Assembly (NCBI GenBank): GCA_027486795.1
Contig: JAIXOI010000006.1
Coordinates: 38,406 to 102,405 of the forward strand
Length of the DNA stretch: 64,000 nucleotides
Reading direction: 5' to 3'
Origin: Sphingobacteriales bacterium
Lineage (GTDB): Bacteria; Bacteroidota; Bacteroidia; Chitinophagales; CAIOSU01
The stretch's first letter is position 1. Each line of letters begins with the position of its first letter. The notes beneath the pieces were generated by a model that was not told the origin of the DNA, did no database searches, and saw nothing but the letters and a program-made list of their open reading frames with translations. The translations under genes were made by a program, and so were the position numbers. Of the stretch, positions 10,326 to 55,315 are shown in pieces.

Positions 10326-10427
10326 GTTGGTTGATCAGTTATTTGTTATCGGTTATTGGTTAAAAATCAATATCATTCGTAATAACCAGTTACCTATCAA
10401 CCAATAACCTATTAACCAATAACTAAT
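10326..10427. repeat. Inverted pair of degenerate heptamer arrays (ATTGGTT)n / (AACCAAT)n
   Basis: Left arm ATCAGTT ATTTGTT ATCGGTT ATTGGTT; right arm AACCAGT..AACCAAT AACCTAT..AACCAAT AACTAAT; about 22-bp spacer. Confidence 0.8.
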
Positions 10428-10439
10428 CCCCCACCCACT

Positions 10440-11435
10440 TTGGAAAACTTCGTTGATTATGTAAAAATCCTGTTCCGGTCGGGTCACGGCGGGGCTGGCT
10501 CTGTGCATTTTCACCGAGACAAATTGTCTGCCAAAGGTGGTCCTGATGGAGGAAATGGTGGTCGTGGCGGTAATATTGTTCTGAAAGGTAACGCCCAACT
10601 ATGGACTTTACTACATTTAAAATACCGCAAACACATATATGCCGATGATGGTGTAAATGGCTCATCGACCTTGATGACAGGTGGTAGTGGTAAGGATATA
10701 ATTATTGAGGTACCGCTGGGCACTATAGCAAAGGACGCCGAAACTGGCGAACACTTGGCCGAAGTAATTGCCGATGGACAAGAAATAACCCTTTATGGTG
10801 GTGGACGAGGCGGTTTGGGCAATGCCCATTTCAAATCGGCTACGCAACAATCGCCGCGCTATGCCCAGCCTGGAGAAGATGGTATTGAAGCTTGGACAGT
10901 ATTGGAGCTGAAAGTACTTGCTGACGTTGGTTTGGTTGGTTTTCCGAATGCGGGTAAATCTACTTTGCTATCAGTATTAAGTGCCGCTAAGCCTGAGATT
11001 GCTGATTATCCATTTACTACCCTTACCCCACAGCTGGGTATAGTGGGTCATTACAATAACCGCTCGTTCATCATGGCCGATATACCGGGCATTATTGAAG
11101 GCGCGCATTTGGGTAAAGGTATAGGTCACCGCTTTTTGCGACACATTGAGCGTAACTCGTTGTTGCTATTTATGATTCCTGCCGATACCGCGGATATTAA
11201 GAAAGAATACAAGATATTGAAAAACGAGTTGAAACAATTCAACCCCGACCTTTTGGATAAGGATCATATATTGGCTATTACCAAGAGTGATTTGCTTGAC
11301 GAGGAACTTAAAAAGATGCTGAAAGTAACCTTACCACGTAAGGTTGAGACAGTGTTTATCTCGTCGCATACCAAAGAAGGACTTGATAAATTGAAAGACC
11401 TACTCTGGACCAAGCTTACCGACACGCCTGCATGA
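10440..11435 (+). CDS. obgE: GTPase ObgE (TTG start)
   Basis: [42 protein letters not shown]. Confidence 0.97.
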
Positions 11436-12385
11436 GCAAGTTTGCCAATACTCCGCTTGATGCACCCTCAATTACTACTGCAACCACCGACGGGCAACCA
11501 ACAGTAGTGCACTGGTCGCTAATATTGTTGTTATCAATGCTTTGGGGTAGCTCATTTATCCTCATGAAATTCGGGTTACAGGCATTTACCTTTACCCAAG
11601 TTGCCAGCTGGCGTTTGTTTTTGGCTTTTTTGGTTTTGTCGCTGTTTTGGTTGCGTATTTCATTCAAAGCAATTACCCTTAACGATTGGAAGTATATACT
11701 GGTTGTTGCCTTATTCGGAAGTGGCATACCACCGTTTTTGTTTACCCTTGCACAAACGCATATACCAAGTGCTATAGCAGGTGTGCTCAATGCCCTTACT
11801 CCGTTGGGTACCATTTTCATCGGCGCATTGCTTTTTAGCAATCGGTTTAATAATAACCAAATTGCGGGAGTGGTAGTGGGGCTTTTGGGCGCGGTGCTTA
11901 TCATGTTCCTTCGTGCCGATGGCAATTTCGAGGGAAATTACCTGTACAGCTTACCAATAGTATTTGCCTGCCTTTGTTATGGCATTGGCGCTAACACTAT
12001 CAAAAATAAGCTGCAACATCTTTCGCCTATAACCATTACCACTGCGGCATTTACCCTTATTGGTCCTCCTGCGGGTATTTATTTATGGTTGAGCGGCGCT
12101 TTTACTCAAGTTGCCACTGATACGGCATCGCAGCAAGCATTGGGTTACTTAACCATACTGGGCGTATTGGGCACGGCATTTGCACTTTTAATGTTCAACT
12201 ACCTTATCAAGAGCGTGAGCGCGCTATTCGCATCTACGGTTACTTACCTTATGCCCATAGTATCTATCGGTTGGGGCTATTACTTCGGCGAAGCGCTAAG
12301 TTGGGTGCACGGCGTTGGTATGGCTCTTATCTTGGCAGGCGTGTGGCTAACGGGGAGGAAGAAGACTTCTTCTAGTATCAAGTAG
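11432..12385 (+). CDS. DMT/EamA family transporter
   Basis: About 10 TM helices; [27 protein letters not shown]. Confidence 0.9.
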
Positions 12386-12518
12386 TGAGTATCAAGTATC
12401 AAGACCAAATGTGTCTTGTTCTAATAGTGCATGGAGCAATATTATTTAAGTTTTCTTGAACTCACATTGTACTAATCCAATTTCTCAACTTGATACTTGA
12501 TACTTGATACTTGATACT
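12374..12518. repeat. Inverted pair of heptamer arrays (AGTATCA)n / (TGATACT)4
   Basis: AGTATCA AGTAGTG AGTATCA AGTATCA at 12374-12401; four perfect TGATACT at 12491-12518; about 90-bp spacer. Confidence 0.9.
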
Positions 12519-13096
12519 CAAGCATATCTCAAATCAATACTGAACTTCTCGGGGTGGCGAGGAGCTATGGTTTTGTAGAATGCCATAATCTCGCGCAAGT
12601 CCTTGTCCATATCGCCACTCGGGTGAATTATTTTGCCCACGCCCGCTTTCTTCTTTTTATAATCTAAGTACCCTAAAGCAATGGGCACACCAGCCTTTAC
12701 AGCTACATGGTAAAATCCGGTCTTCCATTCGGTGCGCAGGGCGCGAGTTCCTTCAGGCGTAACCGCTAGGGTAAGACGCGGGTTGGCTTTAAACAAATCA
12801 ACCATAGCATCAACCATGCTTACGCGCTCGGTGCTGCCGGTTTTGGGGCTACGGTCAATCCATATCGCACCCATACTTTCAATAATACGGCTAATGATTG
12901 GGTAATTGCTCCATTCTTTTTTAATGGTAAATCTGATTTTGATTCCCAATAAATCAAATGTGCCCATCATGTATATCAAGTCCCAGTTGCTGGTATGCGG
13001 GGCAGCTATAATTACACAGTTGTGCACCTCCTCGGTCATACTAGCGTCGTCAAACTCCCAATTCTTAAACTTAAACCAAGCGGCATAAATACTCAT
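12518..13096 (-). CDS. Acyltransferase, PlsC-like
   Basis: APHTSNWD (HX4D), IDR, TPEGTR, WKTGFY. Confidence 0.9.
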   Translation of the reverse strand: MSIYAAWFKFKNWEFDDASMTEEVHNCVIIAAPHTSNWDLIYMMGTFDLLGIKIRFTIKKEWSNYPIISRIIESMGAIWIDRSPKTGSTERVSMVDAMVDLFKANPRLTLAVTPEGTRALRTEWKTGFYHVAVKAGVPIALGYLDYKKKKAGVGKIIHPSGDMDKDLREIMAFYKTIAPRHPEKFSIDLRYA

Positions 13097-13229
13097 AATA
13101 GTAAAGTGTGTAGCGGTTGAGGTGCAAAGTTAAGTTAATTTTGACCCACGATAGATAATAATAGGGTTTATAAGGAGCGTAACTAAACTATTGCCACTCG
13201 TTTTATTAATCCGTATCTTTGCCGAAATT

Positions 13230-13652
13230 TTGAGTAAAGTGGTGTACTTAACACGCAAAGAGCATTTTAACGCGGCGCACAAGCTATACAATGATAGCTG
13301 GAGCGAGGAGAAGAACTGGGCTGTATTTGGCAAATGTGCCAATGCCAATTGGCATGGGCATAACTATAACTTGTATGTAACGGTAAAAGGCAAACCCGAC
13401 CCCGAGACCGGTTTTATAATCAACGTGAAGGACTTGAGCCGCATTATAAAAAATGAGGTAGTGGATCAACTCGACCATAAGAACCTAAATATGGACGTGC
13501 CTTTTTTGCAAGGTAAAATGGCTAGCACCGAAAATTTGGTGATTGTGATTTGGGAGCGATTGGAACTGCATATTGCTAAACATGGTTGTGCATTACACAG
13601 CATTAAACTATACGAAACCGAGAATATTTACGCTGAGTACTTCGGGGAATAA
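13230..13652 (+). CDS. queD: 6-carboxytetrahydropterin synthase / PTPS
   Basis: FNAAHKL, FGKC...HGHNY, LDHKNLN, STEN, YETE. Start refined to TTG 13230 because -7 box TATCTTTG is at 13214-13221. Confidence 0.9.
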
Positions 13653-13660
13653 CTACCATT

Positions 13661-14281
13661 ATGCATCACGACGACGACGACCACCACTCATACCAAAAAC
13701 TGGATAGCTATAACCCTGAAACAACGGCGTTTATTGCGGAGCGAATTGGCAATATAATTACCTCTTTGGGTGAGGATGTGCAACGCGAAGGCTTATTAAA
13801 AACCCCTGAAAGGGTTGCCAAAGCGTACCAGTTTTTGACGCATGGTTATAGTATAGATCCTAAACAGGTTTTGGAGTCGGCGATATTTGATGAGTACCAT
13901 AGCGAAATGATTATCGTTAAAGATATTGAGTTGTACTCACTTTGCGAGCACCACATGTTGCCGTTTTTTGGCAGAGCCCATGTAGCCTACATACCCAATG
14001 GAAAAATTGTAGGCTTGAGCAAAATACCGAGAGTGGTAGATATTTTTTCTCGTCGTTTGCAGGTGCAAGAGCGTCTTACCGTTCAAATTCGCGATTGCAT
14101 AAATGAGGCATTGCATCCACTGGGTGTAGCCGTTGTTATTGAAGCCAAGCACCTTTGTATGATGATGCGCGGCGTCGAGAAACAGAACAGCGTAACCACT
14201 ACTTCGGCTTTTGTTGGCGAATTTGAGAAACAAGCCACCCGTCAAGAGTTTATAAACTTGCTATCGGCTAAGTTGTCTTAA
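13661..14281 (+). CDS. folE: GTP cyclohydrolase I
   Basis: [44 protein letters not shown]. Confidence 0.97.
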
Positions 14282-14366
14282 GAAACACCCGTTTTAGAAA
14301 AACAAAGACACCCTTGCAGCAGGCCCGCTTCCCGCCGCAAAGGCATCCTCGTCAATTATAGTTATC

Positions 14367-15752
14367 TCACACCAATGTGGCATTGGCACTTACGGTTAAG
14401 GTGCTATCCAGCTCGTTAAGGGCTTGGTTTATCTCAGCATCAGTAAGGTCATGGTCAACCAAATTGCCAGCCAAATATTGCTCATAGGCCGATAGGTCGA
14501 AATGCCCGTGCCCGCAAAGATTGAACAGAATGGTTTTAGCCTCGCCAGTTTCCTTGGCTTTTAGCGCTTCGTCAATTACGGTAGCAATAGCATGGTTGGC
14601 CTCGGGCGCAGGCAGTATGCCTTCGGTGCGCTCAAATAGCAACCCAGCCTCAAAGCATTTGCTCTGCTGCACCGCCCTTGCCGATATCAACTTATCTTTC
14701 AACAATTGGCTTACTATAACCCCAGCACCGTGGTAGCGTAATCCGCCTGCATGTATACTTGGTGGCACAAAGTTATGGCCCAGCGTATACATCGGTATTA
14801 GCGGCACCATACCCACGGTATCGCCAAAATCATAACGGAATTGGCCCTTGGTAAGCTTGGGGCAAGAGGTAGGCTCTACGGCAATGCACTCCACTTTTTT
14901 GCCTTGGGTAAGGTTGAGGTGCAAAAACGGAAAGGCTATGCCCGCAAAGTTGGAGCCACCGCCAAAAGGTGCAATGACCATATCTGGAAAATCGCCAGCA
15001 ATTTCCAATTGTTTGATGGCTTCTTGGCCAATAATGGTTTGGTGCAATAGCACATGGTTGAGCACGCTGCCCAGGGAGTATTTTACATGGTCGTTTTTCA
15101 TGGCCACCTCCACGGCTTCAGATATGGCAATACCTAAGCTGCCTGTTGAGTCTGGGGTTTTGGCCAAAATCTGCTTGCCGCTTTCGGTTTGGTTACTCGG
15201 CGAAGCAATCACCTTGGCCCCGAAGGTGTTCATCAATACCTTGCGGTAGGGCTTGTGCTCATAGCTCAACTTTACCATGTACACTTCCAAAGCAATGCCA
15301 AAATGCTGGCAGGCAAAGCTCAGCGCACAGCCCCATTGGCCCGCGCCAGTTTCGGTGGTTATGTGGGTTACGCCCTCCATTTTGTTGTAATAGGCTTGCG
15401 GTATAGCAGTGTTAGGTTTATGCGAACCGGTAGGGCTTACGCCTTCGTATTTGTAGTATATTTTGGCGGGTGTACCCAGTGCTTTCTCTAGGTTGGTGGC
15501 CCTGATTAGTGGGGTAGGGCGGTAAATTTTGTAAAGCTCTTGTACTTCCTCGGGTATCTCAATGTACCGCTCCGTTGATACTTCTTGCTTTATCAATTCC
15601 ATAGGAAATAAGGGTGCCAAGTCTTCGGGCCCTAAGGGTTGCTGCGTTACAGGGTGCAGGGGCGGCATAGGCTTGTTGGGCATGTCGGCCAAAATATTGT
15701 AATAGTGGGTGGGCATTTCACTTTCGCTGAGGTGGATTTTCTTGCTTTTCAT
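14367..15752 (-). CDS. trpB2: TrpB-like PLP enzyme (TrpB2 type)
   Basis: [54 protein letters not shown]. Likely start ATG 15752 (MKSKKIHL). Confidence 0.93.
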
Positions 15753-15873
15753 GGGATGATTGATTGTGGGTTGAACAGAAATTAACGCAGGCATGGTTTT
15801 GAAACCTATACGGGCATTGGGTTGTATAATTTATTGTCGATAAAAAAGTAAGGGAACCATAGCTGAAAGGGGG

Positions 15874-15914
15874 AAAAGAAAAAGGGATACTCGGTGCGAC
15901 CGACGTATCCCTTT
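15874..15914 (-). terminator. Attenuator terminator upstream of trpB2
   Basis: Minus strand reads AAAGGGATACGTCGG-TCGCA-CCGAGTATCCCTTT followed by a U-rich tract. Confidence 0.8.
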
Positions 15915-15944
15915 CAGCTTATGGGTTTGAAAAAGGTAATAACG

Positions 15945-16010
15945 CTACGAGGCCGCTTGGACTTGCCAAACGCGCCACCGATTGTTACGTTGTACCTTTT
16001 GATTGTTCAT
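15945..16010 (-). CDS. Putative Trp leader peptide MNNQKVQRNNRWRVWQVQAAS
   Basis: 21-aa ORF with two Trp codons, ending 30 nt before the terminator hairpin and upstream of trpB2. Confidence 0.75.
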   Translation of the reverse strand: MNNQKVQRNNRWRVWQVQAAS

Positions 16011-16107
16011 GATGCAAGTATAACGACGAAATTTGGAAACTAGGTAGAATATACTTAGATATATTTTATTGTAATAAGTTTTAAGCTGATTTCTATTATT
16101 TTGCCCA

Positions 16108-16147
16108 ATTAACCAATAATAAATCAACCAATAACCAATCAACCAAC
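16108..16147. repeat. Degenerate (AACCAAT)n array, single arm
   Basis: attaaccaataataaatcaaccaataaccaatcaaccaa, next to the stop codon at 16153; same unit as 10326-10427. Confidence 0.6.
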
Positions 16148-16152
16148 GCAAA

Positions 16153-17043
16153 CTAGAAATTCACGTAGCGGGCATAGGTGCTCAATGGCAATTGCCTGCC
16201 TGCTTTATCAGTAAGGTATAACTCACCATATTCTGTTTTGCGAACATTGAAAACGGTCTTCACCAAATTGTCAGCAATAAGCGACGAGAAGCCCATGCTG
16301 TATAGGTTCAGTATCACAAACGACGGCTGCGGCAACATCAATGCTTGGCACTCTTTCAGCAACTCCATTATACTCTCTTCCAACACCCATTTTTCACCTT
16401 CGGGTCCGCGCCCATAGGCAGGAGGGTCAAGGATAATGCCGTTGTATTTTTTGCCACGCTTCACCTCACGTTTCACAAACTTAAGCGCATCCTCCACCAT
16501 CCAACGGATGTTGTCTAAATTGCTCGCTATCATGTTTTCTTTACTCCAGTTAATCACTTGTTTGATGGAATCGACGTGCGTAACATCGGCACCCGCAGCC
16601 TTGGCGGCCAACGAGGCACCGCCCGTATAAGCAAACAAATTCAGTACTTTATATTCCATGCTACCCGCGTATGGCGAAGCGGCATCGTATATAAAATCCC
16701 AATTGGTGGCTTGCTCCGGGAAAATGCCTACGTGTTTAAAGGCAGTCAATCCCAATCTAAAACGCAGGTGCATTTTAAGGTATTTATACTCCATAAACCA
16801 TTGCTCAGGCATGCCCGTTTGCAAAATCCACTCGCCACGCTCAAGGTCCGCTTTTTGGTCTTTGCCTGCTTTTTTGAAGTAGGCATGTGCAGCTTGCCAA
16901 ACCTTTTCGGGCTGGGCTTTTTCCCAAACCGCTTGTGGCTCGGGGCGGCGCAAGGTATAGGCCCCAAAGCGCTCCAGTTTCTCAAAACCTCCGGTATCAA
17001 TCAATTCGTAATCGGCCCATGGGCGTGGGGTAAGTAGCTGCAT
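16153..17043 (-). CDS. Class I SAM-dependent methyltransferase, RlmI/RlmK-like
   Basis: YELID.G..EKLERFG, RPEPQAVW, FKHVGIFPEQ, VLNLFAYTG, ILDPPAYG. Confidence 0.85.
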   Translation of the reverse strand: MQLLTPRPWADYELIDTGGFEKLERFGAYTLRRPEPQAVWEKAQPEKVWQAAHAYFKKAGKDQKADLERGEWILQTGMPEQWFMEYKYLKMHLRFRLGLTAFKHVGIFPEQATNWDFIYDAASPYAGSMEYKVLNLFAYTGGASLAAKAAGADVTHVDSIKQVINWSKENMIASNLDNIRWMVEDALKFVKREVKRGKKYNGIILDPPAYGRGPEGEKWVLEESIMELLKECQALMLPQPSFVILNLYSMGFSSLIADNLVKTVFNVRKTEYGELYLTDKAGRQLPLSTYARYVNF

Positions 17044-17199
17044 GGGTGCAAAGATAGTTGTTTTGGTGGATGGGCTATAGTCGAATGGTACCTGCCTGCC
17101 GCAGGCTGGGGTGGGGGTAAAATACGGGCGGGCTCTTGAAATTATAGTACGTTAAAAGCGAAATGCCAACCCCAATTTTAAATTTTAAATTTTGAATTT

Positions 17200-17919
17200 T
17201 CAATTCACTCGGCTCCCCACAAAAGTCCTCAAGATAGGCGCGCGCCAGGTAGGTTGTGCGTGAGAAGATACCGAAGTGAAACCCGTAGCTTTCATCTTAG
17301 CTTCCAGCTCCTTAGGGCCGAGGAAGTTGAGTACGCTCTTAATAAGGTAGCTGAAAATGTTGGTTTCGCCAGTAGTGATAAAGCTGATGGGTAGGATGAA
17401 TATATACCCTAATATCCACCAATAAGCTGCAGAGTACCAAGTGTCGCTTAACGAATAATCATGTATTACCAACTTGCCATTGGGCTTCAACAGCGGCAGT
17501 AGTTGTGCCAACGATTTATCGTAATCGGGCATGTTGCGCAGTCCGTAGGCCATAAATATAGCATCAAAGCTTTCGCGTTCAAAATTTAGCTTCATGGCAT
17601 CTTGCAACTGCAATTGCAGTTTCCCTGCTTTTATCTCGTTGGCAAATTTCTCGCCAGCTACATACAGCATTTCCTCTGAGTTATCTACCCCAGTTACTTT
17701 CCCAGTAGTTATGTAGGGTAGCACCGCCCCCGTGCTTTTGCCCGTGCCGCAGCAAAGGTCAAGTACTGTTTCGTTACCCTGTAGTTGCAGGAACGAGGCA
17801 CTGCGATTTAAATCGCTTTGGTAGCCTTGGCTTAGGCCAGTGGCCATATCATAGCGGCGGGCTATTTTGTTAAACTCTTTGGGTACAGCAACTTTATTTT
17901 CGATAAGCGATTGAGACAT
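17200..17919 (-). CDS. UbiE/MenG-like SAM methyltransferase
   Basis: F..IARRYD, VLDLCCGTG, GVDNSEEML, AYGLRN, LKPNG; likely start ATG 17919. Confidence 0.8.
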   Translation of the reverse strand: MSQSLIENKVAVPKEFNKIARRYDMATGLSQGYQSDLNRSASFLQLQGNETVLDLCCGTGKSTGAVLPYITTGKVTGVDNSEEMLYVAGEKFANEIKAGKLQLQLQDAMKLNFERESFDAIFMAYGLRNMPDYDKSLAQLLPLLKPNGKLVIHDYSLSDTWYSAAYWWILGYIFILPISFITTGETNIFSYLIKSVLNFLGPKELEAKMKATGFTSVSSHAQPTWRAPILRTFVGSRVN

Positions 17920-18095
17920 GATGCAAATGGTTGTTTTGAACAATGGCAACAAAGGTAGGAACAAAAGGTTTTAGGTGGTTACTGGTGTATTAGTTAATTG
18001 GTTATTGGGTGCTTGCCAATGCAAGGTGGTATGGTAAAAGGCGGGTTGAAGATGGCCCGCAATATCATTTGTGTTATAACATTTGAGTTACCTCC

Positions 18096-18130
18096 ATTTT
18101 CAAATTCCCGAATTTTCAAATTTTCGAATT
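18096..18130. repeat. Octamer array (ATTTTCAA)n
   Basis: ATTTTCAA ATTCCCGA ATTTTCAA ATTTTCGA ATT. Confidence 0.7.
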
Positions 18131-18211
18131 GAAAAGGCTATTTTTACGAGTCGAAGCAGGTCGGCAATCAATAGCCGCAGCGCAGCGTTTTAATAATTGG
18201 AGAAACATAGC

Positions 18212-20020
18212 ATGGCAGATAGCAAGGTATTATTGGAAGTGAAGGATCTGATAACCGAATTTCGCACGGAAGACGGCGTAATGACCGCGGTAAACAAAAT
18301 CAGTTTTACCCTAAACCGTGGCGAAACCATCGGTATTGTGGGCGAATCGGGTTCGGGTAAATCGGTTACCTCACTCTCTATCATGCGATTGATACCCAGC
18401 CCTCCGGGCCGTATTGCCGGTGGACAAATTATCTATCACCACAAGGAGAAGGGTCCAATTGATTTGGTAGCCCTTACCGAAAAGGAGATGCGCGAGTTTC
18501 GTGGTAACGAGATTTCGATGATTTTTCAAGAGCCAATGACGTCGCTAAACCCAGTGTTTACCTGTGGCGATCAAGTGGCGGAGGCTATTATGCTGCACCA
18601 AAAAAAGAATAAAACCGAGGCGCGCCAAATGACCTTGGATTTGTTTAAGAAAGTACAACTGCCTAGGCCGGAGAAGATTTTGGATGCTTACCCGCACCAA
18701 ATTTCGGGCGGACAGAAGCAGCGCGTTATGATTGCCATGGCCATGAGTTGCAACCCAGGCATACTGATTGCCGATGAGCCAACAACTGCCTTGGACGTAA
18801 CCGTGCAGGCTACCATTCTTGATTTGATGCGCGAACTGCGCGACGAGATTGATACTTCTATCATCTTCATTACGCACGATTTGGGTGTGATAGCCGAAAT
18901 TGCCGACCGTGTGATAGTGATGTACAAAGGTGATATTGTGGAGCAAGGGCCGATTAAGGACATCTTTAGCAACCCACAGCACCCGTATACCAAAGGCTTG
19001 TTGGCTTGCCGCCCGCCTTTGGAAAAACGCTATAGCGAGTTGCCTACCATTGCCAATTTTATGGGTAAGGACGAAAATGGCAAATTGATTGAGCTGCAAA
19101 GCAATATTGAGGAAGTAATTGCGCGAGTGACCATTAGCGACGAGGTACATAGCCAGCGCTTGGTAGAGTTGAAGAAGCAAGAGCCGCTGTTGCAAGTGAA
19201 AAACCTGTGCACTTGGTTTCCGAGTACGAAAAACTTTTTTGGCAAAACCATTGATTACGTAAAGGCCGTTGATAATATTTCGTTCGATGTTTACCCAGGC
19301 GAAACGCTAGGGTTGGTGGGCGAGTCGGGTTGTGGTAAAACTACCACAGGCCGCAGTATTTTGCGCCTGGCCCCAGTTACTAGTGGCGAGATTATTTATA
19401 AAGGCCGCAACATACTCAATGTTTCCGATTCGGAGATGAAGGCGTTGCGCGAGGAAATGCAAATCATTTTCCAAGATCCATACAGCTCGCTGAATCCACG
19501 TATGACCATCGGCGGCGCCATTATGGAGCCGATGCAGGTGCACGGCATCTATAACAGCGATAAAGAACGTAAAGAGCGTGTAGAACATTTGCTGGATACG
19601 GTGGGTTTGCCGGGTGCGCACTTTAGCCGCTACCCGCATGAGTTTAGCGGTGGCCAGCGCCAACGTATTTGTATTGCCCGCGCCTTGGCCCTAAACCCTA
19701 GCTTTATCATTTGCGACGAATCGGTATCGGCATTGGACGTATCGGTGCAAGCACAGGTGTTGAACTTGTTGATTAAGCTTCGCGAGGAGTTCAAATTCAC
19801 GTATATCTTCATTTCGCATGACCTTTCGGTAGTGAAATTTATGAGTGACCGCATGGTGGTGATGAACAAGGGCAAGATTGAGGAAATGGGACCTGCCGAT
19901 AGCATCTACAACAACCCGCAACAAGAATATACCAAAGGTCTCATCAGTGCCATCCCTAAGGGCCGCATTGAAGACATTGAGCGCCGCATAGCCGAAAGGC
20001 ACGCGGGAGTTGGGGCATAA
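18212..20020 (+). CDS. Peptide/nickel ABC transporter ATPase with two fused nucleotide-binding domains (GsiA/YejF-like)
   Basis: Two GESGxGKS/T Walker A motifs, [12 protein letters not shown] and [20 protein letters not shown] and DESVSALD; no permease genes adjacent. Confidence 0.93.
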
Positions 20021-20076
20021 TTTTTGAATTGAAAATTTAAGATTCAAAATTTAAAATTGTCTCGAAGCAGGTAAGT

Positions 20077-20108
20077 CCCTCTCCCTCTGGGAGAGGTTAG
20101 GTGAGGGG
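20077..20108. repeat. REP-like palindrome CCTCTCCC-TCT-GGGAGAGG-TTAGGTGAGG
   Basis: 8-bp perfect stem with a purine-rich tail, shape typical of REP sequences. Confidence 0.6.
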
Positions 20109-20197
20109 GTAGTTTAAGTAGCTGGTTACTTGCGGGTTGCGGGTTTGAAATGCCACGATAGAAAGGCATAAACATTTGTAATGTTGTGCTGCTGAGT

Positions 20198-20346
20198 TGT
20201 GTCATGGTGAGCGGAGTCGAACCATCCGCAATATGTACACATAACACTTGTAAAAAAAATCAGCTTAATTTCCCAAAAACAGAACAGCGTTTTGCCACCT
20301 ACATTATGGATGGTTTCTCGTTTCAAACGAGACTCACCATGACACA
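20198..20346. mobile_element. 149-bp MITE/REPIN-like element
   Basis: Perfect 14-bp terminal inverted repeat TGTGTCATGGTGAG / CTCACCATGACACA and inner IR AACCATCC / GGATGGTT; no ORF. Confidence 0.65.
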
Positions 20347-20473
20347 TCCGGTACGCCCAGTACTTTAAGTTAATTAGGCTTGGAGGGGGTAATGGCCGAG
20401 GGATGAATTTTGAAACGCGGCTAATCCAACAATCGAAATAGAAAACCCCTCACCATCGACTATCGACCATGGA

Positions 20474-20569
20474 CTACTCAACCCCCAACTCCCCAAACCT
20501 CTTCTTCCCTTTTGCAAAAAACTGCCAAAGGATACTATTGTGATAAAGGCCCTCGGTGTTGGCCGTTTT
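20474..20569 (-). pseudogene. Displaced duplicate 3' end of the glycosyltransferase gene at 22409-23470
   Basis: Translates KTANTEGLYHNSILWQFFAKGKKRFGELGVE*, versus KTANTEGLYNKSILWQFFVKGKKRFGELGVGNNHIKSFD* in the intact gene; 80 of 90 nt identical by hand count. Confidence 0.92.
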
Positions 20570-23485: not shown

Positions 23486-23522
23486 AATTTGGAAATGTGG
23501 TAATTTGAAAATTTGAAAATGG
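23486..23522. repeat. Octamer array (AATTTGAA)n; reverse-complement copy of 46946-46982
   Basis: AATTTGGA AATGTGGT AATTTGAA AATTTGAA AATGG; 33 of 37 nt match the reverse complement of 46946-46982. Confidence 0.8.
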
Positions 23523-36697: not shown

Positions 36698-39472
36698 ATG
36701 TTTCAATCAAGGTTATTTTATACCGCTGTGTTGCTTATCACCTCGCTGGCGGTCTTTGCTCAAACTGGCACTATCAGGGGTTATATTTCCGATTCGGCCA
36801 GCAACCAATCAATGGTTAACGTAGTGGTGTTTCTGGAAAAAACAGAGATTAGCACCATTACTAACATCGATGGCTCTTTTGAATTGACCAACGTGCCAAT
36901 TGGCAGATATGTAATTGTTGCCCAAACCGATTTGTATAACGATTTGGCAATCAGCATTGAGGTTAAATCTGGCGACAACGATTTGGGTACCCTTAAGCTT
37001 ATCAATCGCGAAGGGGGCACCGATTTGCTTTCGGCCGAAGACATCATTCCTACGGTGAGCTTGAGCGAAAACGACTTGCGCGGCGATGGCGCCCAAAACG
37101 TATCTGGTTTGCTTACCGCCTCTCGCGATGTGTATATCAACACCGCAGCTTTTGTATTTGGCAGCTACCGCTATCGCATACGTGGCTATGATGGCGAAAA
37201 TACCGACGTTTTTTTGGATAACTTACCCATGAACGACCTTGAAGATGGCCGCGCATACTGGAACCAGTGGGGTGGCTTAAACGATGTGTTTCGCAGCCGC
37301 GAAAACGAAATTGGGCTAAACCCAGTTGATTTTACGTTTGGTGGTGTCGGTGGCTCATCGGGTATACAAACAGGTGCCGCATCGCAGCGCAAGCAATACC
37401 GTATTTCGTATGCGGCAAGCAATCGTACTTACACCAACCGCTTAATGGCTACCTACTCTACAGGCTTACTACCAAAGGGCTGGGCGGTTTCGCTTTCTGC
37501 ATCGCGTCGCTGGGCCAAAGAAGGTTATGTTGATGGCACTAGTTATGATGCTTGGTCGTATTTTGCGGCTGTTGAAAAGGTAATCAACAACCACAACATT
37601 AACCTTACTATTTTTGGTGCCCCAACCAATCGTGGCAAAACATCACCTACTTTGCAAGAAGCGTACAACATTACCGGTAGCAATTTTTACAACCCAAACT
37701 GGGGCTACCAAGATGGGGTAAAACGCAATAGCGATATTGTTCATAGCCATTTGCCAACCATTATTTTGAGCCATATCTGGAAAATTGACGAGAAAAGTAA
37801 GCTTTCTACCTCCTTCGGATACCAGTTTGGACAAAACGGCAGCACTACTTTAAACTGGTACAATGCGCCCGACCCAAGGCCCGACTACTACCGCAACTTA
37901 CCTAGCTACATAACTGACTCAACGCTGCAAGATCAGGCGCTGCAGAACTATACCGAGAACCCAGAATTACTTCAGTTGGATTGGGATAGGTTTTATAGTG
38001 TAAATGCCAATAGCACCGAAACCGTAGAAAACTATAACGGCACTGGCCGCGATACTACCGTAAACCTTTCGCGCTATATTATTGAAGATCGCCGTTATGA
38101 TAAAAAGCGTGTGAGTGCAAGCATGTTGTTTGAGCATAAATTTAGCGATCGTTTTATATTGCAATCGGGTGCTAGCTATGTGTGGCAGCGTACTTACAAC
38201 TTTAAGGTTATTGACGATTTATTGGGAGGAGATTTGTTTTTGGATGTAAATCAATTTGCCGAGCGGGATTTTGTAAACGACCCGAATGCTGTTCAAAACG
38301 ACCTAGAAAACCCCAACCGCCTGCTGAAAGTAGGAGACCGCTACGGGTATGACTATAACATTACAGTAAGTAAAACTAACGCCTGGGTGCAGGGTATTGC
38401 CAACCTGAGCAATTGGGAGTTGTTTGGTGCAGCAAACATTTCGCATACCCAATTTTACCGAACCGGTAACTATCGTAGTGGCTTGTTTCCGGATGACTCA
38501 AAAGGTGATGGCGAAAAGCTAAGTTTTGTGAATTATGGCGTTAAGGGCGGTGCTACCTACAAAATTAATGGTCGTAATTATTTGATTGCAAATGGAAGCT
38601 ACATGACCAGGGCACCGTATGCCAAAAATGCCTACATACAACCCCGCACTCGTAATCAAATAGTTGACAACCTGCAAAACGAGCAGATTTATTCTTTTGA
38701 AGGTGGATATTTGCTAAAAGCGCCTAAACTTAAGGCCAGAGCTATATTTTACTACACCCAGTTTCTTAACGGCACCGATACGTACAGTTTTTATTACGAT
38801 TTGGAACGCAACTTCGTAAACGTGGCATTAACTAATATTGATAGGCGTCACTTGGGTGGTGAGTTTGCCATTGAGGCTCAAATTTTTACTGGGTTCAAAA
38901 TTTCTGCTGTTTCGGCCATTGGGCAAAACATTTATACCAGTCGCCAAAGCGCAACTATAACGCTTGACAACAGTGCCGAAATTTTGGCTCGCGACCTTAC
39001 TATTTATTCAAAGAACTTTTTTGTGGCTAATGGGCCGCAGTTTGCCAATAGTTTAGGGTTTCACTACAATTCATCCAAGTTTTTTGCAAACCTTTATGTG
39101 AACTACTTCGACCGTATATTTATTGATTACAACAGGGTGCGTAGAACCGAAGAGGCAGTTGATTTGGTTGAACCGGGCTCTCAGTTGTGGAACGATATAT
39201 TGCAGCAGCAGGAGATGGACGGACAGTTTACCGTTGACATATTCGGTGGTACTTCATTCAAAGTAAACGATTGGATTAAAAAATTGGAACGCAGTACTTA
39301 TTTGTATCTTACGGTTGGTGTAAACAATATCTTAAATAACCGGAAGTTTATAACAGGTGGCTTTGAACAAACCCGATTAGACTACTCGGGCAACAACGTA
39401 AATAAGTTTCCGCCCAATTATTTTTATGCATATGGTGTCAACTTTTTTATCAGCGCAAGCTTAAAGTTTTAA
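36698..39472 (+). CDS. TonB-dependent receptor (non-SusC type) with N-terminal carboxypeptidase-regulatory-like domain
   Basis: Signal peptide, GTIRG....TNIDGSFEL.NVP.G.Y, plug motif RIRGYD, amphipathic beta strands, NNILN, C-terminal Phe (ISASLKF). Confidence 0.88.
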   Translation: MFQSRLFYTAVLLITSLAVFAQTGTIRGYISDSASNQSMVNVVVFLEKTEISTITNIDGSFELTNVPIGRYVIVAQTDLYNDLAISIEVKSGDNDLGTLKLINREGGTDLLSAEDIIPTVSLSENDLRGDGAQNVSGLLTASRDVYINTAAFVFGSYRYRIRGYDGENTDVFLDNLPMNDLEDGRAYWNQWGGLNDVFRSRENEIGLNPVDFTFGGVGGSSGIQTGAASQRKQYRISYAASNRTYTNRLMATYSTGLLPKGWAVSLSASRRWAKEGYVDGTSYDAWSYFAAVEKVINNHNINLTIFGAPTNRGKTSPTLQEAYNITGSNFYNPNWGYQDGVKRNSDIVHSHLPTIILSHIWKIDEKSKLSTSFGYQFGQNGSTTLNWYNAPDPRPDYYRNLPSYITDSTLQDQALQNYTENPELLQLDWDRFYSVNANSTETVENYNGTGRDTTVNLSRYIIEDRRYDKKRVSASMLFEHKFSDRFILQSGASYVWQRTYNFKVIDDLLGGDLFLDVNQFAERDFVNDPNAVQNDLENPNRLLKVGDRYGYDYNITVSKTNAWVQGIANLSNWELFGAANISHTQFYRTGNYRSGLFPDDSKGDGEKLSFVNYGVKGGATYKINGRNYLIANGSYMTRAPYAKNAYIQPRTRNQIVDNLQNEQIYSFEGGYLLKAPKLKARAIFYYTQFLNGTDTYSFYYDLERNFVNVALTNIDRRHLGGEFAIEAQIFTGFKISAVSAIGQNIYTSRQSATITLDNSAEILARDLTIYSKNFFVANGPQFANSLGFHYNSSKFFANLYVNYFDRIFIDYNRVRRTEEAVDLVEPGSQLWNDILQQQEMDGQFTVDIFGGTSFKVNDWIKKLERSTYLYLTVGVNNILNNRKFITGGFEQTRLDYSGNNVNKFPPNYFYAYGVNFFISASLKF

Positions 39473-46945: not shown

Positions 46946-46982
46946 CCATTTCCAAATTTCCAAATTGCCACATTTTCAAATT
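46946..46982. repeat. Octamer array (TCCAAATT)n
   Basis: CCATT TCCAAATT TCCAAATT GCCACATT TTCAAATT. Confidence 0.8.
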
Positions 46983-47211: not shown

Positions 47212-47236
47212 GTGGGAGAATGTGGTAGAAAGTGGA
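47212..47236 (+). promoter_or_regulatory. MraZ binding repeats, 3 x GTGG with 10-bp period
   Basis: GTGGGAGAAT GTGGTAGAAA GTGGA directly upstream of mraZ. Confidence 0.85.
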
Positions 47237-47278
47237 AAGTTTTAGTAACTTTACCGTTATAGCTAATAAAAACAAGCA

Positions 47279-48633: not shown

Positions 48634-48637
48634 CGCC

Positions 48638-51095: not shown

Positions 51096-52561
51096 TGAAG
51101 CCATTGAAGGACATATTGAAAGGCATCACCCTGCAGGAAACCGTGGGAGACTTAGCAGTTGCTGTACAGCAACTTAGCTTAGACTCTCGTGAGGTAGCCG
51201 CGGGGACGGCCTTCTTTGCCCTGCGTGGCACTGCAGTTGATGGTCATACCTTCATTACTAAGGCAGTAGCGTTGGGTGCTTCGGCTATTGTTTGTGAGGA
51301 AATGCCTACTGAATTGAAAGCGGGTGTTACTTACGTTAAAGTGGCCAATAGCTCAGTATCATTGGGTTATGCGGCTACTAACTTTTACGACAATCCTTCT
51401 AGCAAACTAAAGCTGGTGGCGGTTACGGGCACCAATGGCAAAACCTCTACGGTTACCATGTGCTACGAGCTGTTCCGCACCTTGGGCTATAAAGTGGGCT
51501 TGCTATCTACCGTGCGCAATTTGATTGACCAAGTAGAAGTGCCAGCCACGCACACCACCCCGAACGCTATTGCTTTAAACGCTTTGTTGTCCGAGATGGT
51601 AGATGCTGGTTGCGCGTTTGCCTTTATGGAAGCCAGCAGTCACGCTATTGTGCAACACCGTACTAGCGGTTTGCAGTTTACAGGTGCAGCCTTTACCAAC
51701 ATTACCCACGACCATTTAGACTACCACGGTACTTTCGATAATTACATTGCTGCTAAAAAGCAGTTGTTCGATGAGTTGCCGAAATCGGCTTTTGCATTAA
51801 CCAATATTGACGAAAAGCGCGGTCGTGTAATGGTGCAGAATACCAATGCCAGCATCAAAACCTATAGCCTTAGCCGTATTGCCGATTTCAAAGGCCGTAT
51901 CGTTGAGAACTCGTTCGATGGTTTGATATTGGATGTGGATGGCGTTGAGATGCACACTCGCTTAATCGGCGAATTCAATGCCTACAACCTAATGACCGTT
52001 TACGGCATAGCCATGCTTTTAGGCGGCGATAAACTTGAAGTGCTAAGCGCCATTAGCAACCTAGCCTCTGCCGAGGGAAGATTCGATTATGTGGTGTCGC
52101 TCAAGCAAAAAATAGTGGGTATAGTGGACTATGCTCATACACCCGATGCACTTAAAAAAGTACTATCAACCATACAAGCCATTCGCACCGGCAACGAGCA
52201 AGTAATAACCGTAGTGGGTTGTGGTGGCAACCGCGACAGAGAGAAGCGCCCAGTGATGGCTCGCATCGCTTGCGAATTGAGCAGCCGCGTAATACTTACC
52301 AGCGATAACCCGCGCAACGAAGATCCAGCCGAGATATTGAGGGAAATGCAAGCGGGTGTAACACCCGTATTTGCCAATCGCGTGCTTACCATACAAGACC
52401 GTAAAGAAGCCATCCGCACTGCATGTGCGTTGGCGCAACCAACCGATATAGTGCTGGTGGCTGGCAAAGGCCATGAGAAGTACCAAGATGTAGCGGGGGT
52501 AAAACACCCTTTTGATGATAAGAGGATTTTGGCTGAAACCCTTAAAGAACTAGACAAGTAA
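51095..52561 (+). CDS. murE: UDP-MurNAc-tripeptide synthetase (meso-DAP type)
   Basis: [41 protein letters not shown]. Confidence 0.97.
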
Positions 52562-53808
52562 TGTTGTACTATCTGTTCACATATCTCGATAAAGTGTTCG
52601 ACCTGCCAGGTGCGGGGCTGTTCCAGTTCATCACCTTTAGGGCGGCTGCGGCTATTCTGGTATCGCTATTAATTTCATTAGTATTTGGTGGCCGTTTGGT
52701 AAACTACCTACGTCGCCGCCAAGTAGGCGAAACCGTTCGCGATTTGGGCTTAGATGGTCAATTGCAAAAGCAAGGTACTCCAACCATGGGTGGCTTAATT
52801 ATTCTAGCGGCCATTTTCATCCCAACAGTTTTATTCGCCAAGTTAGAGAACATCTACATCCTATTGATGCTATTGGTAACCGTATGGATGGGAGCCATTG
52901 GCTTTATTGATGATTACATCAAAGTGTTTAAAAAGGACAAGCGTGGCTTGGCTGGCAAATTCAAAGTGATTGGCCAAGTAAGTTTGGGTTTGATTGTAGG
53001 TTCAGTGCTGTACTTTCACCCGAGTGTTACCGTTCGTGAGCCAGTGGCAGCTACCAACGGGCAAGTGCAAGCAATGGTTAGCCCACAAGGTTTTCAAGCA
53101 GATACCACTACCGTTTATCACGATGTAAAGAAGATTACCACCACTATTCCTTTCGTAAAAGGTAATGAGTTTGATTATACCAGACTAATAAGCTGGATAG
53201 GCCCGGAAGCCGCTACATACGGCTGGTTGATTTTTATTCCGGTGGTTATTTTCATTATAACCGCAGTAAGCAACGGTGCCAATATTACTGATGGCATTGA
53301 TGGCTTGGCTACGGGCACTTCGGCTATTGCGGCTTTTACTTTGCTAGTATTTGCCTATATATCGGGTAACATCGTATTCTCCAACTACCTAAGCATTATG
53401 TACTTGCCACAAACCGGCGAGCTAGTAATTTTCATTGCTGCCTTCATTGGTGCTTGCGTGGGTTTTCTTTGGTACAACTCATTTCCAGCCCAAGTATTTA
53501 TGGGCGATACAGGTAGTTTGGCTTTGGGCGGCATCATCGCTGTACTGGCTATTATCGTTCGTAAAGAGCTGCTTATCCCAATTCTATGTGGGGTGTTTGT
53601 TGCCGAAAACTTATCGGTAATGCTACAGGTAGGCTATTTCAAATACACCAAGAACAAATACGGCGAGGGTCGTCGCATATTCAAAATGGCCCCGCTTCAT
53701 CACCATTTTCAAAAATTGGGCATGCACGAGTCTAAAATCGTTACCCGCTTCTGGATAGTAGGTATCATGTTGGCCGTGCTCACCATTGTAACTTTAAAAA
53801 TCCGTTAG
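52561..53808 (+). CDS. mraY: Phospho-MurNAc-pentapeptide transferase
   Basis: [38 protein letters not shown]. Confidence 0.97.
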
Positions 53809-53811
53809 TCC

Positions 53812-55149
53812 GTGGGTAAAAAACTAGTCATACTGGGTGGTGCGGAGAGTGGGGTAGGAGCAGCAGTGCTCGGCCTTAAGAAGGGCTATGAGGTATTTGT
53901 GTCTGATAATGGTATTATCAAAGACCGTTACAAACCACTATACCAACGCTTCAACATCGAGTTCGAAGAAGGCGGCCACACCGAGGCTAGGCTTTTCGAA
54001 GCTGATTTGATTGTGAAGAGCCCAGGCATCCCTGAGAAAGCAGGTATTATCAAAAAACTTCGCGACAAGGGTAAAACCATTATCTCTGAAATTGAATTTG
54101 CCAGCCGCTATACCAATGCCAAAATCATTGCCATAACTGGCAGCAATGGCAAATCAACTTGCACGAGCCTTACTTACCACATCCTTAAAAGGGCAGGTTT
54201 CAAAGTAGGTTTGGCGGGCAATATCGGCCAGAGCTTTGCATTGCAAGTAGCCTTAGAAAAATTTGACTATTACGTAGTGGAAGTGAGCAGCTTTCAGTTG
54301 GACGACATCGGTCCTAGTTTCAAGCCAAATGTTGCAGTGCTACTCAACATTACCCCAGACCACTTGGATAGGTACGACTATAAGTTCGAGAACTATGTAG
54401 CCAGCAAATTCAAGATTATCCAAAATCAAGACAAGAACGATCACTTCATCTATTGCGCCGATGACCACGTGGTATCTGAAGTATTGCGCACCAATGAAAT
54501 AGCGGCCCAGACTTACGCCTTTGGCCTGGAACACCAACCAGAGTATGTGGCCTACACCGAAGAAGACCAACTCATCATTAACTATAAAACCGAATTTAAG
54601 ATGTCAATTAACGAACTAGCCCTAGTAGGAAAGCATAACGTTTACAATTCAATGGCCGCAGGGATTGCAGCCCGTATATACGACATCCGTAAAGAGGTTA
54701 TCCGCGAGAGTTTGTCTGATTTTCAGAGCCTTGACCACCGTTTGGAGTTTGTAGCCAAAGTAGGTGGCGTAGAGTATATCAACGACTCAAAAGCAACTAA
54801 TGTGAACAGCACTTGGTATGCCTTAGAAAGCATGACCAAACCAGTTATCTGGATAGTGGGTGGTGTTGACAAAGGCAACGACTACGAGATTTTGAAAGCC
54901 ATTGTGCAGAAGAAAGTAAAAGCGATTGTTTGCCTAGGCGAAAATAACCTGCGCATACACGAAGCTTTTTCTCGCTACGTAGATATTTTGGTGAATACCA
55001 TGAGTGCCGAAGATGCGGTACAATCAGCGCACAACCTAGCCGACAAAGGCGATGTGGTTTTGCTATCACCGGCCTGCGCCAGTTTCGATTTGTTCGAAAA
55101 CTATGAAGACCGTGGTAACCAGTTTAAAGCTAGCGTGCGAGCACTTTGA
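53812..55149 (+). CDS. murD: UDP-MurNAc-L-Ala--D-Glu ligase
   Basis: KSPGI, TGSNGKST, EVSSFQL, PDHLDRY, NDSKATN, SPACASFD. Confidence 0.97.
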   Translation: MGKKLVILGGAESGVGAAVLGLKKGYEVFVSDNGIIKDRYKPLYQRFNIEFEEGGHTEARLFEADLIVKSPGIPEKAGIIKKLRDKGKTIISEIEFASRYTNAKIIAITGSNGKSTCTSLTYHILKRAGFKVGLAGNIGQSFALQVALEKFDYYVVEVSSFQLDDIGPSFKPNVAVLLNITPDHLDRYDYKFENYVASKFKIIQNQDKNDHFIYCADDHVVSEVLRTNEIAAQTYAFGLEHQPEYVAYTEEDQLIINYKTEFKMSINELALVGKHNVYNSMAAGIAARIYDIRKEVIRESLSDFQSLDHRLEFVAKVGGVEYINDSKATNVNSTWYALESMTKPVIWIVGGVDKGNDYEILKAIVQKKVKAIVCLGENNLRIHEAFSRYVDILVNTMSAEDAVQSAHNLADKGDVVLLSPACASFDLFENYEDRGNQFKASVRAL

Positions 55150-55151
55150 GC

Positions 55152-55315
55152 ATGCACAATGTACAATGTACGATGTACAAAGTACAATGTTTAAAATTGA
55201 AGGATGAGTAGGAGTATAAAATGAGTTGGCTTGAAATGTTAGGAAAGTACTAATCGAAAGGAGATAATCAATACATAAAACTATATCGTACTTTGTACCT
55301 CGTACATCGTACATC
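55152..55315. repeat. Inverted pair of heptamer arrays (ATGTACA)n / (TCGTACA)n inside the dcw operon
   Basis: ATGCACA ATGTACA ATGTACG ATGTACA AAGTACA ATGTTTA at 55152-55193; TCGTACT TTGTACC TCGTACA TCGTACA at 55286-55313; about 92-bp spacer. Confidence 0.88.

Follow-up and report, generated by a model that had tools for sequence, protein, structure and literature searches.

What are the paired arrays of seven-nucleotide repeats that fill the spaces between genes in this DNA, and do they mark places from which a gene has been lost? The window, that is, the whole stretch of 64,000 nucleotides analysed here (contig JAIXOI010000006.1 of a Sphingobacteriales bacterium, positions 38,406 to 102,405), has three intergenic sites at which tandem heptamers are followed by a spacer and then by the reverse-complement array, the unit being different each time. 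The initial annotation of the window had described exactly this arrangement, and it is found at all three sites as described. It had also proposed that the sites are ends or empty relics of a mobile or cassette-like system that targets gene ends, possibly left behind after the loss of a four-helix-bundle gene of the TIGR02436 type.

We find that the three sites are typical representatives of a family of dispersed repeat modules that extends through the lineage. The modules have a fixed orientation with respect to the genes that they border. The explanation that we favour, and to which we give an even chance, is that these edge modules spread from locus to locus by copying and are exchanged as blocks, and that pairs of the same class act as RNA stem-loops at gene ends. 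The genome that carries the window (G000; 3.9 Mb, 59 contigs) was compared with the genomes of relatives, which are called G001 to G004 and so on.

The three sites of the window

At all three sites Tandem Repeats Finder gives a 7-nt unit with 4.3–6.4 copies per arm, the right array being the reverse complement of the left, and the paired-array elements fill the spacers in which they lie. Pfam matches place site 1 between the genes of adenylate kinase and Obg, site 2 between the convergent genes of an EamA transporter and an acyltransferase, and site 3 between those of MurD and FtsW. In the following, L denotes the strand form of a unit that is found on the left of a pair, and R its complement, found on the right.

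The left arm of site 1 (10325..10362, ATTGGTT class, L form) starts 10 nt past the adk stop codon (10313-10315). It is followed by a loop of 20 nt in the fold (10363..10382) and by the right arm (10383..10427, AACCAAT class, R form), which ends 12 nt ahead of the called obg start; the repeat scan bounds the two arrays at 10327-10362 and 10381-10427, with the unit ATTGGTT and its complement. At site 2 the unit is AGTATCA and its complement. The left arm (12374..12403) is the 30-mer AGTATCAAGTAGTGAGTATCAAGTATCAAG, of which the genome has 25 copies, and it carries the final residues and the stop codon (12383-12385) of the EamA-family gene. The loop of 84 nt (12404..12487) has no kinship to the other loops, and the right arm, (ACTTGAT)4.4 at 12488..12518, touches the stop codon of the convergent acyltransferase gene (12518-12520). 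At site 3 the left arm (55152..55190, GTACAAT/GTACGAT class) begins 3 nt past the murD stop codon (55147-55149), the loop of 94 nt (55191..55284) contains a core, aatgagttgg..ttgaa, that is common to the murD-ftsW spacers of four relatives, and the complementary right arm (55285..55315, ATCGTAC class) ends 10 nt ahead of the ftsW ATG (55326). The earlier observation that the elements start at or near stop codons is thus correct, as the adk, EamA, acyltransferase and murD stops all lie within or near the arrays.

The predicted RNA folds have energies of −28.3 kcal mol−1 (z = −4.9) for site 1, −49.1 kcal mol−1 (z = −5.7) for site 2 and −39.9 kcal mol−1 (z = −3.0) for site 3, with 200 shuffles in each case, and the predicted stems extend over the entire length of the arrays. 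A scan of the window with Rfam gave no family at gathering score and no rRNA.

The EamA-family gene shows what an array can do to a coding end. Its final residues and stop codon (12374-12385) come from the heptamer array, and the proteins of relatives stop ca 6 residues earlier, which indicates that arrays can remodel C-termini.

A genome-wide family with a fixed polarity

In G000 there are 103 arrays of at least three units with period 7, compared to 17 with period 6, 8 with period 8 and 9 with period 9, and no period-7 array of this length is present when the genome is shuffled by 500-nt blocks. Tandem Repeats Finder assigns period 7 to 586 of its 2262 rows for the genome. With a looser threshold 235 period-7 arrays are obtained, of which 215 lie outside the open reading frame (ORF) calls, which are crude longest-ORF calls and span 89% of the genome. 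A reverse-complement partner within 1.5 kb (score ≥14) exists for 50–51 of the 235 arrays, while the reversed control gives 0/235 and the complement-only control 8/235. Paired inverted arrays are thus in excess of the shuffled, reversed and complement controls, with a conserved geometry and differing units.

Merging leads to 43 inverted pairs, the stems of which are ca 30 bp long and have Watson-Crick pairs at 949 of 1064 positions. The loops are mostly 18–150 nt, a few being 400–990 nt with a gene inside, and the pairs are located between tandem genes (22), convergent genes (9) and divergent genes (9), or at contig ends (3). About seven unit classes can be distinguished, namely AGTATCA, GACACAA, GTACGAN, AAAATTG, GGTCCAT/GGTCGAT, ATTGGTT and GTTGCGA, plus one period-8 class; among the 44 canonical units counted in the genome, TAACTGA, a unit known from other bacteria, does not occur. 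When the 43 loops are compared with one another by BLAST, six matches are found, one of them between overlapping entries of a single locus and three between loops with ca 30 nt in common, and homology among the loops is essentially absent. As the loops are mutually unrelated, no copy-and-paste of whole elements is seen, and a miniature inverted-repeat transposable element with a conserved interior was for this reason dropped as a candidate.

In the short-loop pairs one and the same strand form is always on the left and its complement on the right. Expressed differently, the unit strand as written reads 5′→3′ from the gene edge to the middle of the spacer on both sides. The side of the spacer predicted from this rule is occupied by 155 of the 189 classified intergenic arrays, and also by 113 of the 138 arrays outside detected pairs (binomial p = 1.5e-14). 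Read on the strand of the gene, arrays outside detected pairs that follow a stop codon are L in 62 cases and R in 12, and those that precede a start codon are R in 51 cases and L in 13. Spacers with several arrays have the orders LR (22), LL (3), LRR (2), RR (1) and RRR (1), and RL does not occur. As the polarity is mirrored in the two halves of the spacer, it cannot be due to the direction in which the genes are transcribed.

The arrays also have a narrow position. Their distance to the stop codon has a median of 9.5 nt, it is at most 3 nt in 31 of 96 cases, and in 11 of 96 the array overlaps the end of the ORF, in line with the claim that arrays sit at gene ends. When the same class is present at both edges of a spacer an inverted repeat results, and with differing classes no hairpin is possible. 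Neighbouring L and R arrays belong to one class in 9 cases, compared to 4.0 expected from the class frequencies, and to different classes in 15 cases (strict threshold). The hairpin is therefore a frequent, not an obligatory, outcome, because mixed-class neighbours outnumber same-class ones.

One further arrangement was observed at a gene that, judged by eye from its translation, is groES (G000:C21:38956-39423). The gene is preceded by an array of the AACCAAT class and followed by one of the ATTGGTT class, and with the R form upstream and the L form downstream the ends of the mRNA could pair over the whole gene.

Turnover between relatives

How stable are the elements over short evolutionary distances? 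In the adk-obg spacer a hairpin of the ATTGGTT class is found in all six genomes of the genus (6/6), with differing unit patterns and loops. In other genera the two genes are neighbours in 21 genomes, with spacer lengths from −8 to 173 nt. Among the spacers that were read, all but the −8 one, a single one has a lone heptamer array, and the remainder have no array or ordinary hairpins. The G002 spacer has a nested hairpin, in which an outer GACCACA/GGTCCAC pair surrounds the ATTGGTT-class pair and an additional AACCAAT array stands at the 3′ edge.

At sites 2 and 3, G003 and G004 have other classes, and the two sides are non-complementary, for example with the GTTGCGA class on the left and the TGATACT class on the right, although the flanking proteins are 96–100% identical. 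The central core of the murD-ftsW spacer is common to all five genomes compared. An independent metagenome contig of 66.7 kb, from a strain that is ca 2.6% diverged, has 94 other letters in place of site 2 and 168 letters in place of 20024-20452, and it is collinear across site 1.

A broader comparison was made between G000 and G004 for 368 orthologous spacers (794 kb of G004), the flanks of which are ca 95% identical. Spacers that are less than 70% alike make up 14 of the 49 with arrays in either genome, compared to 16 of the 319 without, which corresponds to an odds ratio of 7.6 (p = 2.7e-6). In some of these cases a whole hairpin, arms and loop alike, has given way to one of a different class, which occupies the same position downstream of the stop codon; in others a hairpin stands against a mixed pair, or arrays have been gained or lost. 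The copy number of units also varies between relatives. No target-site duplication was spotted at the swapped sites on inspection by eye. Polymorphism between relatives, both in presence and absence and in content, is hence clearly found. A comparison of filled and empty alleles at the three window sites yielded no filled allele in five relatives, nor at sites 1 and 2 in the one metagenome strain.

The genes enclosed by the arrays

The initial annotation had stated that TIGR02436 genes often sit between such arrays, and the counts agree with this. All five TIGR02436 genes of G000 lie between inverted period-7/8 arrays (5/5). In the bacterial family a flanking inverted repeat (score ≥14) is present at 30 of 34 loci from 18 genomes, some of the loci being orthologues, with an arm period of 7 or 8 in 33; across the phylum the same score is reached at 18 of 30 loci (30 genomes), with period 7 or 8 in 17. 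For control ORFs of 100–160 aa in G000 the number is 8/456. One gene that was examined in G027 is arranged differently, lying between long direct AATGGGC/AATAGGC arrays of several hundred nt that are not inverted (G027:C1:2623446-2624482). In the literature searched we found no published link between TIGR02436, PF05635 or S23p and heptamer arrays. One of the TIGR02436 proteins matches PDB 2RLD, an uncharacterised protein of which five chains are deposited, and we take the TIGR02436/PF05635 proteins to be related to the Avd proteins of diversity-generating retroelements. Other genes are enclosed occasionally, for instance a likely acetyltransferase (by eye). At G000:C28:350150-351178 a 317-aa ORF that by eye resembles a phage or encapsulin-type capsid protein has AATTTTG-class arrays at its flanks.

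The gene-bearing loci themselves differ between relatives. At a locus on contig C38, G000 has a cassette with ATGTACCA arms, G003 and G004 have a different TIGR02436 gene with AATTTGAA arms, which is ca 70% like another G000 cassette with AATTTGGA arms, and G001 and G002 have no gene; in the gene-less alleles the arms of the filled ones are missing as well. At a locus on contig C21, G001 has the same arm class with the gene inverted relative to the flanks, and in G003 and G004 the gene has been lost, leaving a remnant right arm beside unrelated palindromic repeats. At a third cassette site G002 has an element with a Y1 transposase.

Could the gene-less hairpins then be former TIGR02436 cassettes from which the gene has been deleted, left by a mobile cassette that targets gene ends? 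The enclosure of TIGR02436 genes by the same arms speaks for it, as do the loss with a remnant arm at the C21 locus, the C38 locus with two different cassettes or no gene depending on the relative, and an AGTATCA-class arm pair, similar to that of site 2, around a TIGR02436 gene in a genome of another family. Against it, no TIGR02436 remnant was found in 37 gene-less elements of G000, where the best E-value, 3, was poorer than that of the top match among 1120 control spacers. The loops of the window (20, 84 and 94 nt) enclose no PF05635/TIGR02436-type ORF or remnant, an enclosed ORF being present at five other G000 loci, and, as stated above, relatives provide no filled allele. Gene-less hairpins also outnumber the genes by ca 7 to 1 (37 vs 5), with ca 190 further arrays in addition, the arms occur singly and in mixed-class pairs as well, and the gene-less C38 alleles lack the arms of the filled ones. 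Taken together, this makes it unlikely that the hairpins are empty relics. The proposal that the window sites have lost a TIGR02436 gene is accordingly not borne out, the one clear loss being elsewhere, at C21. As for a mobile, cassette-like system, what stands is that the elements are cassette-like, located at gene ends and tied to TIGR02436; that the arrays are element ends does not predict single or non-complementary arms.

Probable copying of modules

The left arm of site 2 is informative with regard to how the arrays spread, as one of its internal units is a variant, AGTAGTG. Allowing for at most two mismatches, G000 has this 30-mer at 25 places, 11 of them with an exact copy, and 794 kb of G004 contain it seven times; pure (AGTATCA)n 30-mers occur at 14 places in G000. 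Several loci have composite arms, with the AGTATCA class outside and the GTACGAN class inside. In the genome of another family of the phylum mentioned above, the arm around the TIGR02436 gene contains a 23-mer that is identical at three G000 loci. Arrays of the AGTATCA unit were found in 4 of 121 genomes sampled over the phylum, with the reversed control pattern almost never matched.

The simplest view of such arrays would be that they are heptamer repeats born by slippage, which survive in non-coding DNA without any function and become hairpins by occasional inverted duplication. An excess of heptamer repeats has been reported in many prokaryotes (Mrazek 2007, cited in the available part of PMC4679880), and the variable copy number, the fast turnover and the stems without a wobble signal all fit this view. 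It leaves unexplained, however, the strict polarity with no RL order, the variant-bearing 30-mer at 25 loci, the occurrence of one module in distant genomes with a patchy distribution, the class switch at one site between near-identical genomes, and the specific tie to one gene family. A purely neutral origin is for these reasons improbable in our estimate. Slippage alone is insufficient, and inter-locus copying or selection for a specific sequence is therefore needed. The suspicion voiced in the initial annotation, that simple slippage would not give such a pattern, is in this respect well founded on the polarity, the variant 30-mer and the class switching.

Which enzyme could copy the modules? 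A natural candidate is a transposase of the RAYT type (repetitive extragenic palindromic (REP)-associated tyrosine transposase). G000 has six Y1-transposase genes (Y1_Tnp), all flanked by other, GC-rich palindromes, and a heptamer array lies within 700 nt in only one of six; mobilisation by RAYTs is thus unsupported. In the window an IS200-like Y1 transposase ORF on the plus strand (63315-63761; PF01797, E = 9e-30) has palindromes of its own, of the gttttaaccatggg type, and no heptamer arrays. At G000:C39:36380-36922 a Y1 transposase gene together with its own palindromes lies, as seen by eye, between GTTGCGG-like and complementary arms and is another loop cargo.

Another option considered was the addition of repeats at breaks by a reverse transcriptase (RT), in a telomerase-like manner. 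This would explain the polarity, but the sole RT of G000 is retron-like and lies between a helix-turn-helix (HTH) gene and a patatin gene. The conserved murD-ftsW core between the arms also does not fit a single-break RT model, which we keep as a remote idea. The locus of this RT (L235, G000:C40:106-3750) has an HTH gene, the retron-type RT and a patatin-like phospholipase gene in a row at 1049-3415, the best NCBIfam match of the RT being retron St85, below cut-off. This row is likely an anti-phage retron system that is unrelated to the arrays.

RNase III and the density of arrays

RNase III was not found in G000 by any of TIGR02191, PF14622 and PF00636. TIGR02191 gave no match in the 18 genomes of the family (0/18), two of which are 100% complete, and it matched in each of 13 genomes that represent the order's other 13 families (13/13). 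To judge from these profile searches, it looks like rnc has been lost family-wide. This tentatively suggests that the loss of RNase III let long hairpins build up inside transcription units.

In seven related genomes, most of them covered by partial sequence, array density rises with the TIGR02436 copy number (Spearman rho 0.76, p = 0.046). The density is 0 per 100 kb in G029 (80 kb only) and 0.2 in G026, both without a TIGR02436 copy, 0.5 in G013 with one copy, 4.2 in G027 and 6.0 in G000 with five copies each, 6.8 in G021 with nine, and 7.4 in G004 with four. Partnered arrays are common in the genus of the window only, with 50–51/235 in G000 and 18/59 in G004, vs 2/27 in G021 and 0/17 in G027.

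The stems might alternatively be processing sites, cut by RNase III to split cistrons or to free an enclosed small mRNA. At ca 30 bp they resemble the 28-bp stem of the intervening sequence of Coxiella, as described in the available part of PMC4990558, and in G021, a relative that does have RNase III, inverted arms are present at three of three TIGR02436 loci. The enzyme is missing, though, from the searches of G000 and of the 18 family genomes just described, and the cassettes of the family retain their stems regardless. Processing by RNase III is thus a very improbable role for these elements.

Comparison with known systems

Repeats with some of these properties have been described before, those nearest to the elements here being heptamer hairpins of cyanobacteria, the paired repeat sites of Geobacter metallireducens and the ORF-bearing intervening sequence of 23S rRNA. 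The short tandemly repeated repetitive (STRR) sequences of cyanobacteria are 7-bp repeats that form hairpins between genes, such as hupS-hupL; in the available text of PMC2670836 their function is given as unknown, with a role in transcript stability or termination suggested. The likeness lies in intergenic tandem 7-nt units and hairpin-capable spacers, the sequence of which is variable among close relatives with the structure kept, and all of this applies here. The Nostoc repeat unit TTTTGAA, as given in part of bioRxiv 10.1101/2022.06.06.494920, is a rotation of the AATTTTG form found here, a single unit having been compared. The host lineage is different (heterocystous cyanobacteria), and the polarity rule, the switching of whole hairpins between classes and the tie to TIGR02436 are not described in the portion of the STRR literature that was available. 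Jackman and Mulligan reportedly used the phrase "highly variable but structured intergenic regions" for close relatives in a title of 1995.

The REP elements, with their compound forms known as bacterial interspersed mosaic elements (BIMEs) and REPINs (REP doublets forming hairpins), are likewise dispersed intergenic repeats with inverted doublets and hairpins at gene ends, and REP elements are often transcribed with the upstream gene. They differ from the elements here in that the latter have tandem heptamer arms of several classes, and in that the Y1 genes carry other palindromes.

Another of the nearest systems is the intervening sequence of 23S rRNA, of which ORF-less short forms exist in other bacteria. 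The elements share with it a terminal inverted repeat of ca 28–30 bp around a four-helix-bundle ORF of ca 120 aa, with a total of ca 450–540 nt. They differ in that they stand between protein genes and not in helix 25 or 45 of 23S rRNA, in that their arms are tandem heptamers, and in that the excising RNase III was not found in this family (18 genomes). The Coxiella example is 444 nt long, with its 28-bp stem around an S23p ORF, and is cut by RNase III in vitro (available part of PMC4990558).

Two further systems bear on the possibility that every class is recognised by a factor that binds DNA or RNA. This may be a nucleoid or global regulator, a translation-related factor or the TIGR02436 protein itself, and the polarity would then reflect the orientation of the factor to the gene. 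In Geobacter metallireducens, tandem repeats with units of 8, 9 and 7 nt form 24, 21 and 8 pairs of sites, respectively, the two members of a pair being on opposite strands and a variable distance apart; one pair is located between proB and proA (Aklujkar et al. 2009, PMC2700814, as available). These sites have 3–5 tandem repeats, are intergenic, also within operons, and are missing from the sister species, and that source reads them as sites for global regulators of the integration host factor (IHF)/HU type. The presence of several classes of opposite-strand paired tandem 7- to 9-nt repeats at a variable distance is the same here. The consensus units given there, GTTGCTYN, TCTCCGTS and MTYCTGA, match none of the common G000 units, and enclosed four-helix-bundle genes are not mentioned in the available main text of PMC2700814. 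The TAACTGA repeats of Beggiatoaceae, cyanobacteria and some Bacteroidetes lie a few nt from start codons in the forward orientation, with a reverse set right after stop codons; they have a patchy spread, and neighbours are without them at the same site (MacGregor 2015, PMC4679880). As far as the available text of that study goes, it concerns a single unit in direct repeats with a proposed translational role, notes inverted pairing once and draws no link to TIGR02436. The orientation logic at starts and stops is the same as here; the unit is different, the nearest being a related ACTGAWW arm at the cassette of one relative (L131).

The idea of binding sites gains from both these parallels, that is, the same polarity of TAACTGA, forward before starts and reverse after stops, and the regulator reading of the paired Geobacter sites, and also from the conservation of module sequences among distant genomes, the limited set of classes and the fixed position relative to start and stop codons. 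It is difficult to reconcile gene-specific regulation with classes that differ at the same essential-gene junction despite 96–100% identical flanking proteins, and the five TIGR02436 genes and their arm classes do not correspond one-to-one with the seven common classes. We consider it rather unlikely, on balance, that factor binding accounts for the arrays. Seen against all these systems, the architecture has already been encountered in other phyla. What appears to be new is the rule of polarity, the modular nature of the classes, their switching as blocks, the association with TIGR02436 across the phylum and the setting with regard to RNase III.

Proposed explanation

Our preferred explanation, with its copying and block replacement of edge modules, starts from what is observed: the family, its polarity, the flush position, the module structure, the block turnover, the tie to TIGR02436, the inversion and loss of enclosed genes, and the RNase III that was not found. 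As the same arms enclose TIGR02436 genes, the gene-bearing form is built like the ORF-bearing intervening sequence of 23S rRNA but set between protein genes, and the window sites are the ORF-less form of that architecture. The modules would be DNA-level repeats that are copied from locus to locus and replaced as blocks, with slippage tuning the copy number only. Recombination between inverted arms could lead to inversion or deletion of the loop content. In transcripts, pairs of the same class would give long stem-loops at the stop codon, which may protect the 3′ end or have an insulating function, and such hairpins would be tolerated even in operons such as murD-ftsW because the family is without a detectable RNase III to cut them. 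The tie to the arrays suggests that the TIGR02436 protein is either their trans-acting partner or a passenger in their loops.

Several points weigh against this explanation. No module-copying enzyme was identified in G000, where the Y1 genes have other palindromes and the only RT is retron-like, and the loops are mutually unrelated. Since pairs that lack complementarity are no rarer than the complementary ones (15 vs 9), the hairpin is not the sole reason for the arrays and their polarity. That hairpins form and have a role in transcripts is a proposal drawn from the sequence, and the mismatches in the stems (26 G·T, 20 A·C and 69 other) give no sign of selection at the RNA level; in tandem contexts, wobble-compatible mismatches number 8 for the sense strand and 15 for the antisense strand. 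The loss of RNase III does not by itself produce arrays, because G013, from the same RNase III-less family, is almost array-free. The increase of array density with the number of TIGR02436 copies (Spearman rho 0.76, p = 0.046) comes from seven related genomes and from partial sequence, 80–800 kb each except for G000. Finally, the distances to start codons are unreliable, because the gene calls are crude.

A more far-reaching version is that the polar arrays and the TIGR02436 proteins are the cis and trans halves of one widespread, transposase-free cassette system. The Avd-like protein would recognise its own arm class, the arms would drive copying, inversion and exchange, and the STRR sequences, the TAACTGA repeats, the Geobacter sites and the 23S intervening sequence would be faces of the same system, with the ORF-less hairpins having multiplied inside transcription units after the loss of RNase III. 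We offer this as a speculation, which is probably not correct in this form.

Other arrays in the window

The initial annotation had also listed single 7-nt arms, and arrays are confirmed at these positions. A lone AACCAAT-class array of the R form at 16105..16146 is 6 nt from the stop codon of the minus-strand methyltransferase ORF 16153..17043, and a lone AATTTTN-class array, also R, at 17174..17205 overlaps the stop codon of the minus-strand ORF 17200..17964. A lone AAAATTN-class array of the L form at 20027..20058 lies 6 nt past the stop codon of the ABC-transporter ORF 18197..20020. Short arrays of the GTTGCGG class (L form) and the ATCGACC class (R form) are found at 20130..20145 and 20455..20476, respectively.

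Additional arrays are present as well. By the start of ORF 17200..17964 there is a degenerate ATTGGTT-class array of the L form (17975..18008), read by eye. Lone period-8 arrays are located at 18096..18130 (ATTTTCAA, the class of which is that of the arms of a TIGR02436 cassette at another G000 locus), at 23486..23520 (AATTTGAA, L-type) and at 46948..46982 (ATTTCCAA, R-type). A short AACTCGC-class array, the R form of the GTTGCGA class, is found at 58479..58495.

Two other features of this region were observed. A GC-rich palindromic element, gtgtcatggtgagcgg ... ctcaccatgacac, at 20199-20347 belongs to a separate dispersed family that is seen on other contigs too. At ca 17088, between two methyltransferase genes beside the AATTTTN array, one metagenome strain has ca 170 additional letters.

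Implications

The literature has recorded heptamer repeats for decades, from cyanobacteria and Geobacter to Beggiatoaceae and other groups, and has left them unexplained. The present results set rules for any explanation, which has to account for the strict inward polarity, the flush position at coding ends, the classes shared by distant genomes and the replacement of blocks among near-identical genomes. That RNase III seems to have been lost by an entire bacterial family merits checking by itself. The strong phylum-wide tie to the TIGR02436/PF05635 family, whose function is unknown, makes the question of what these arrays are a testable one.

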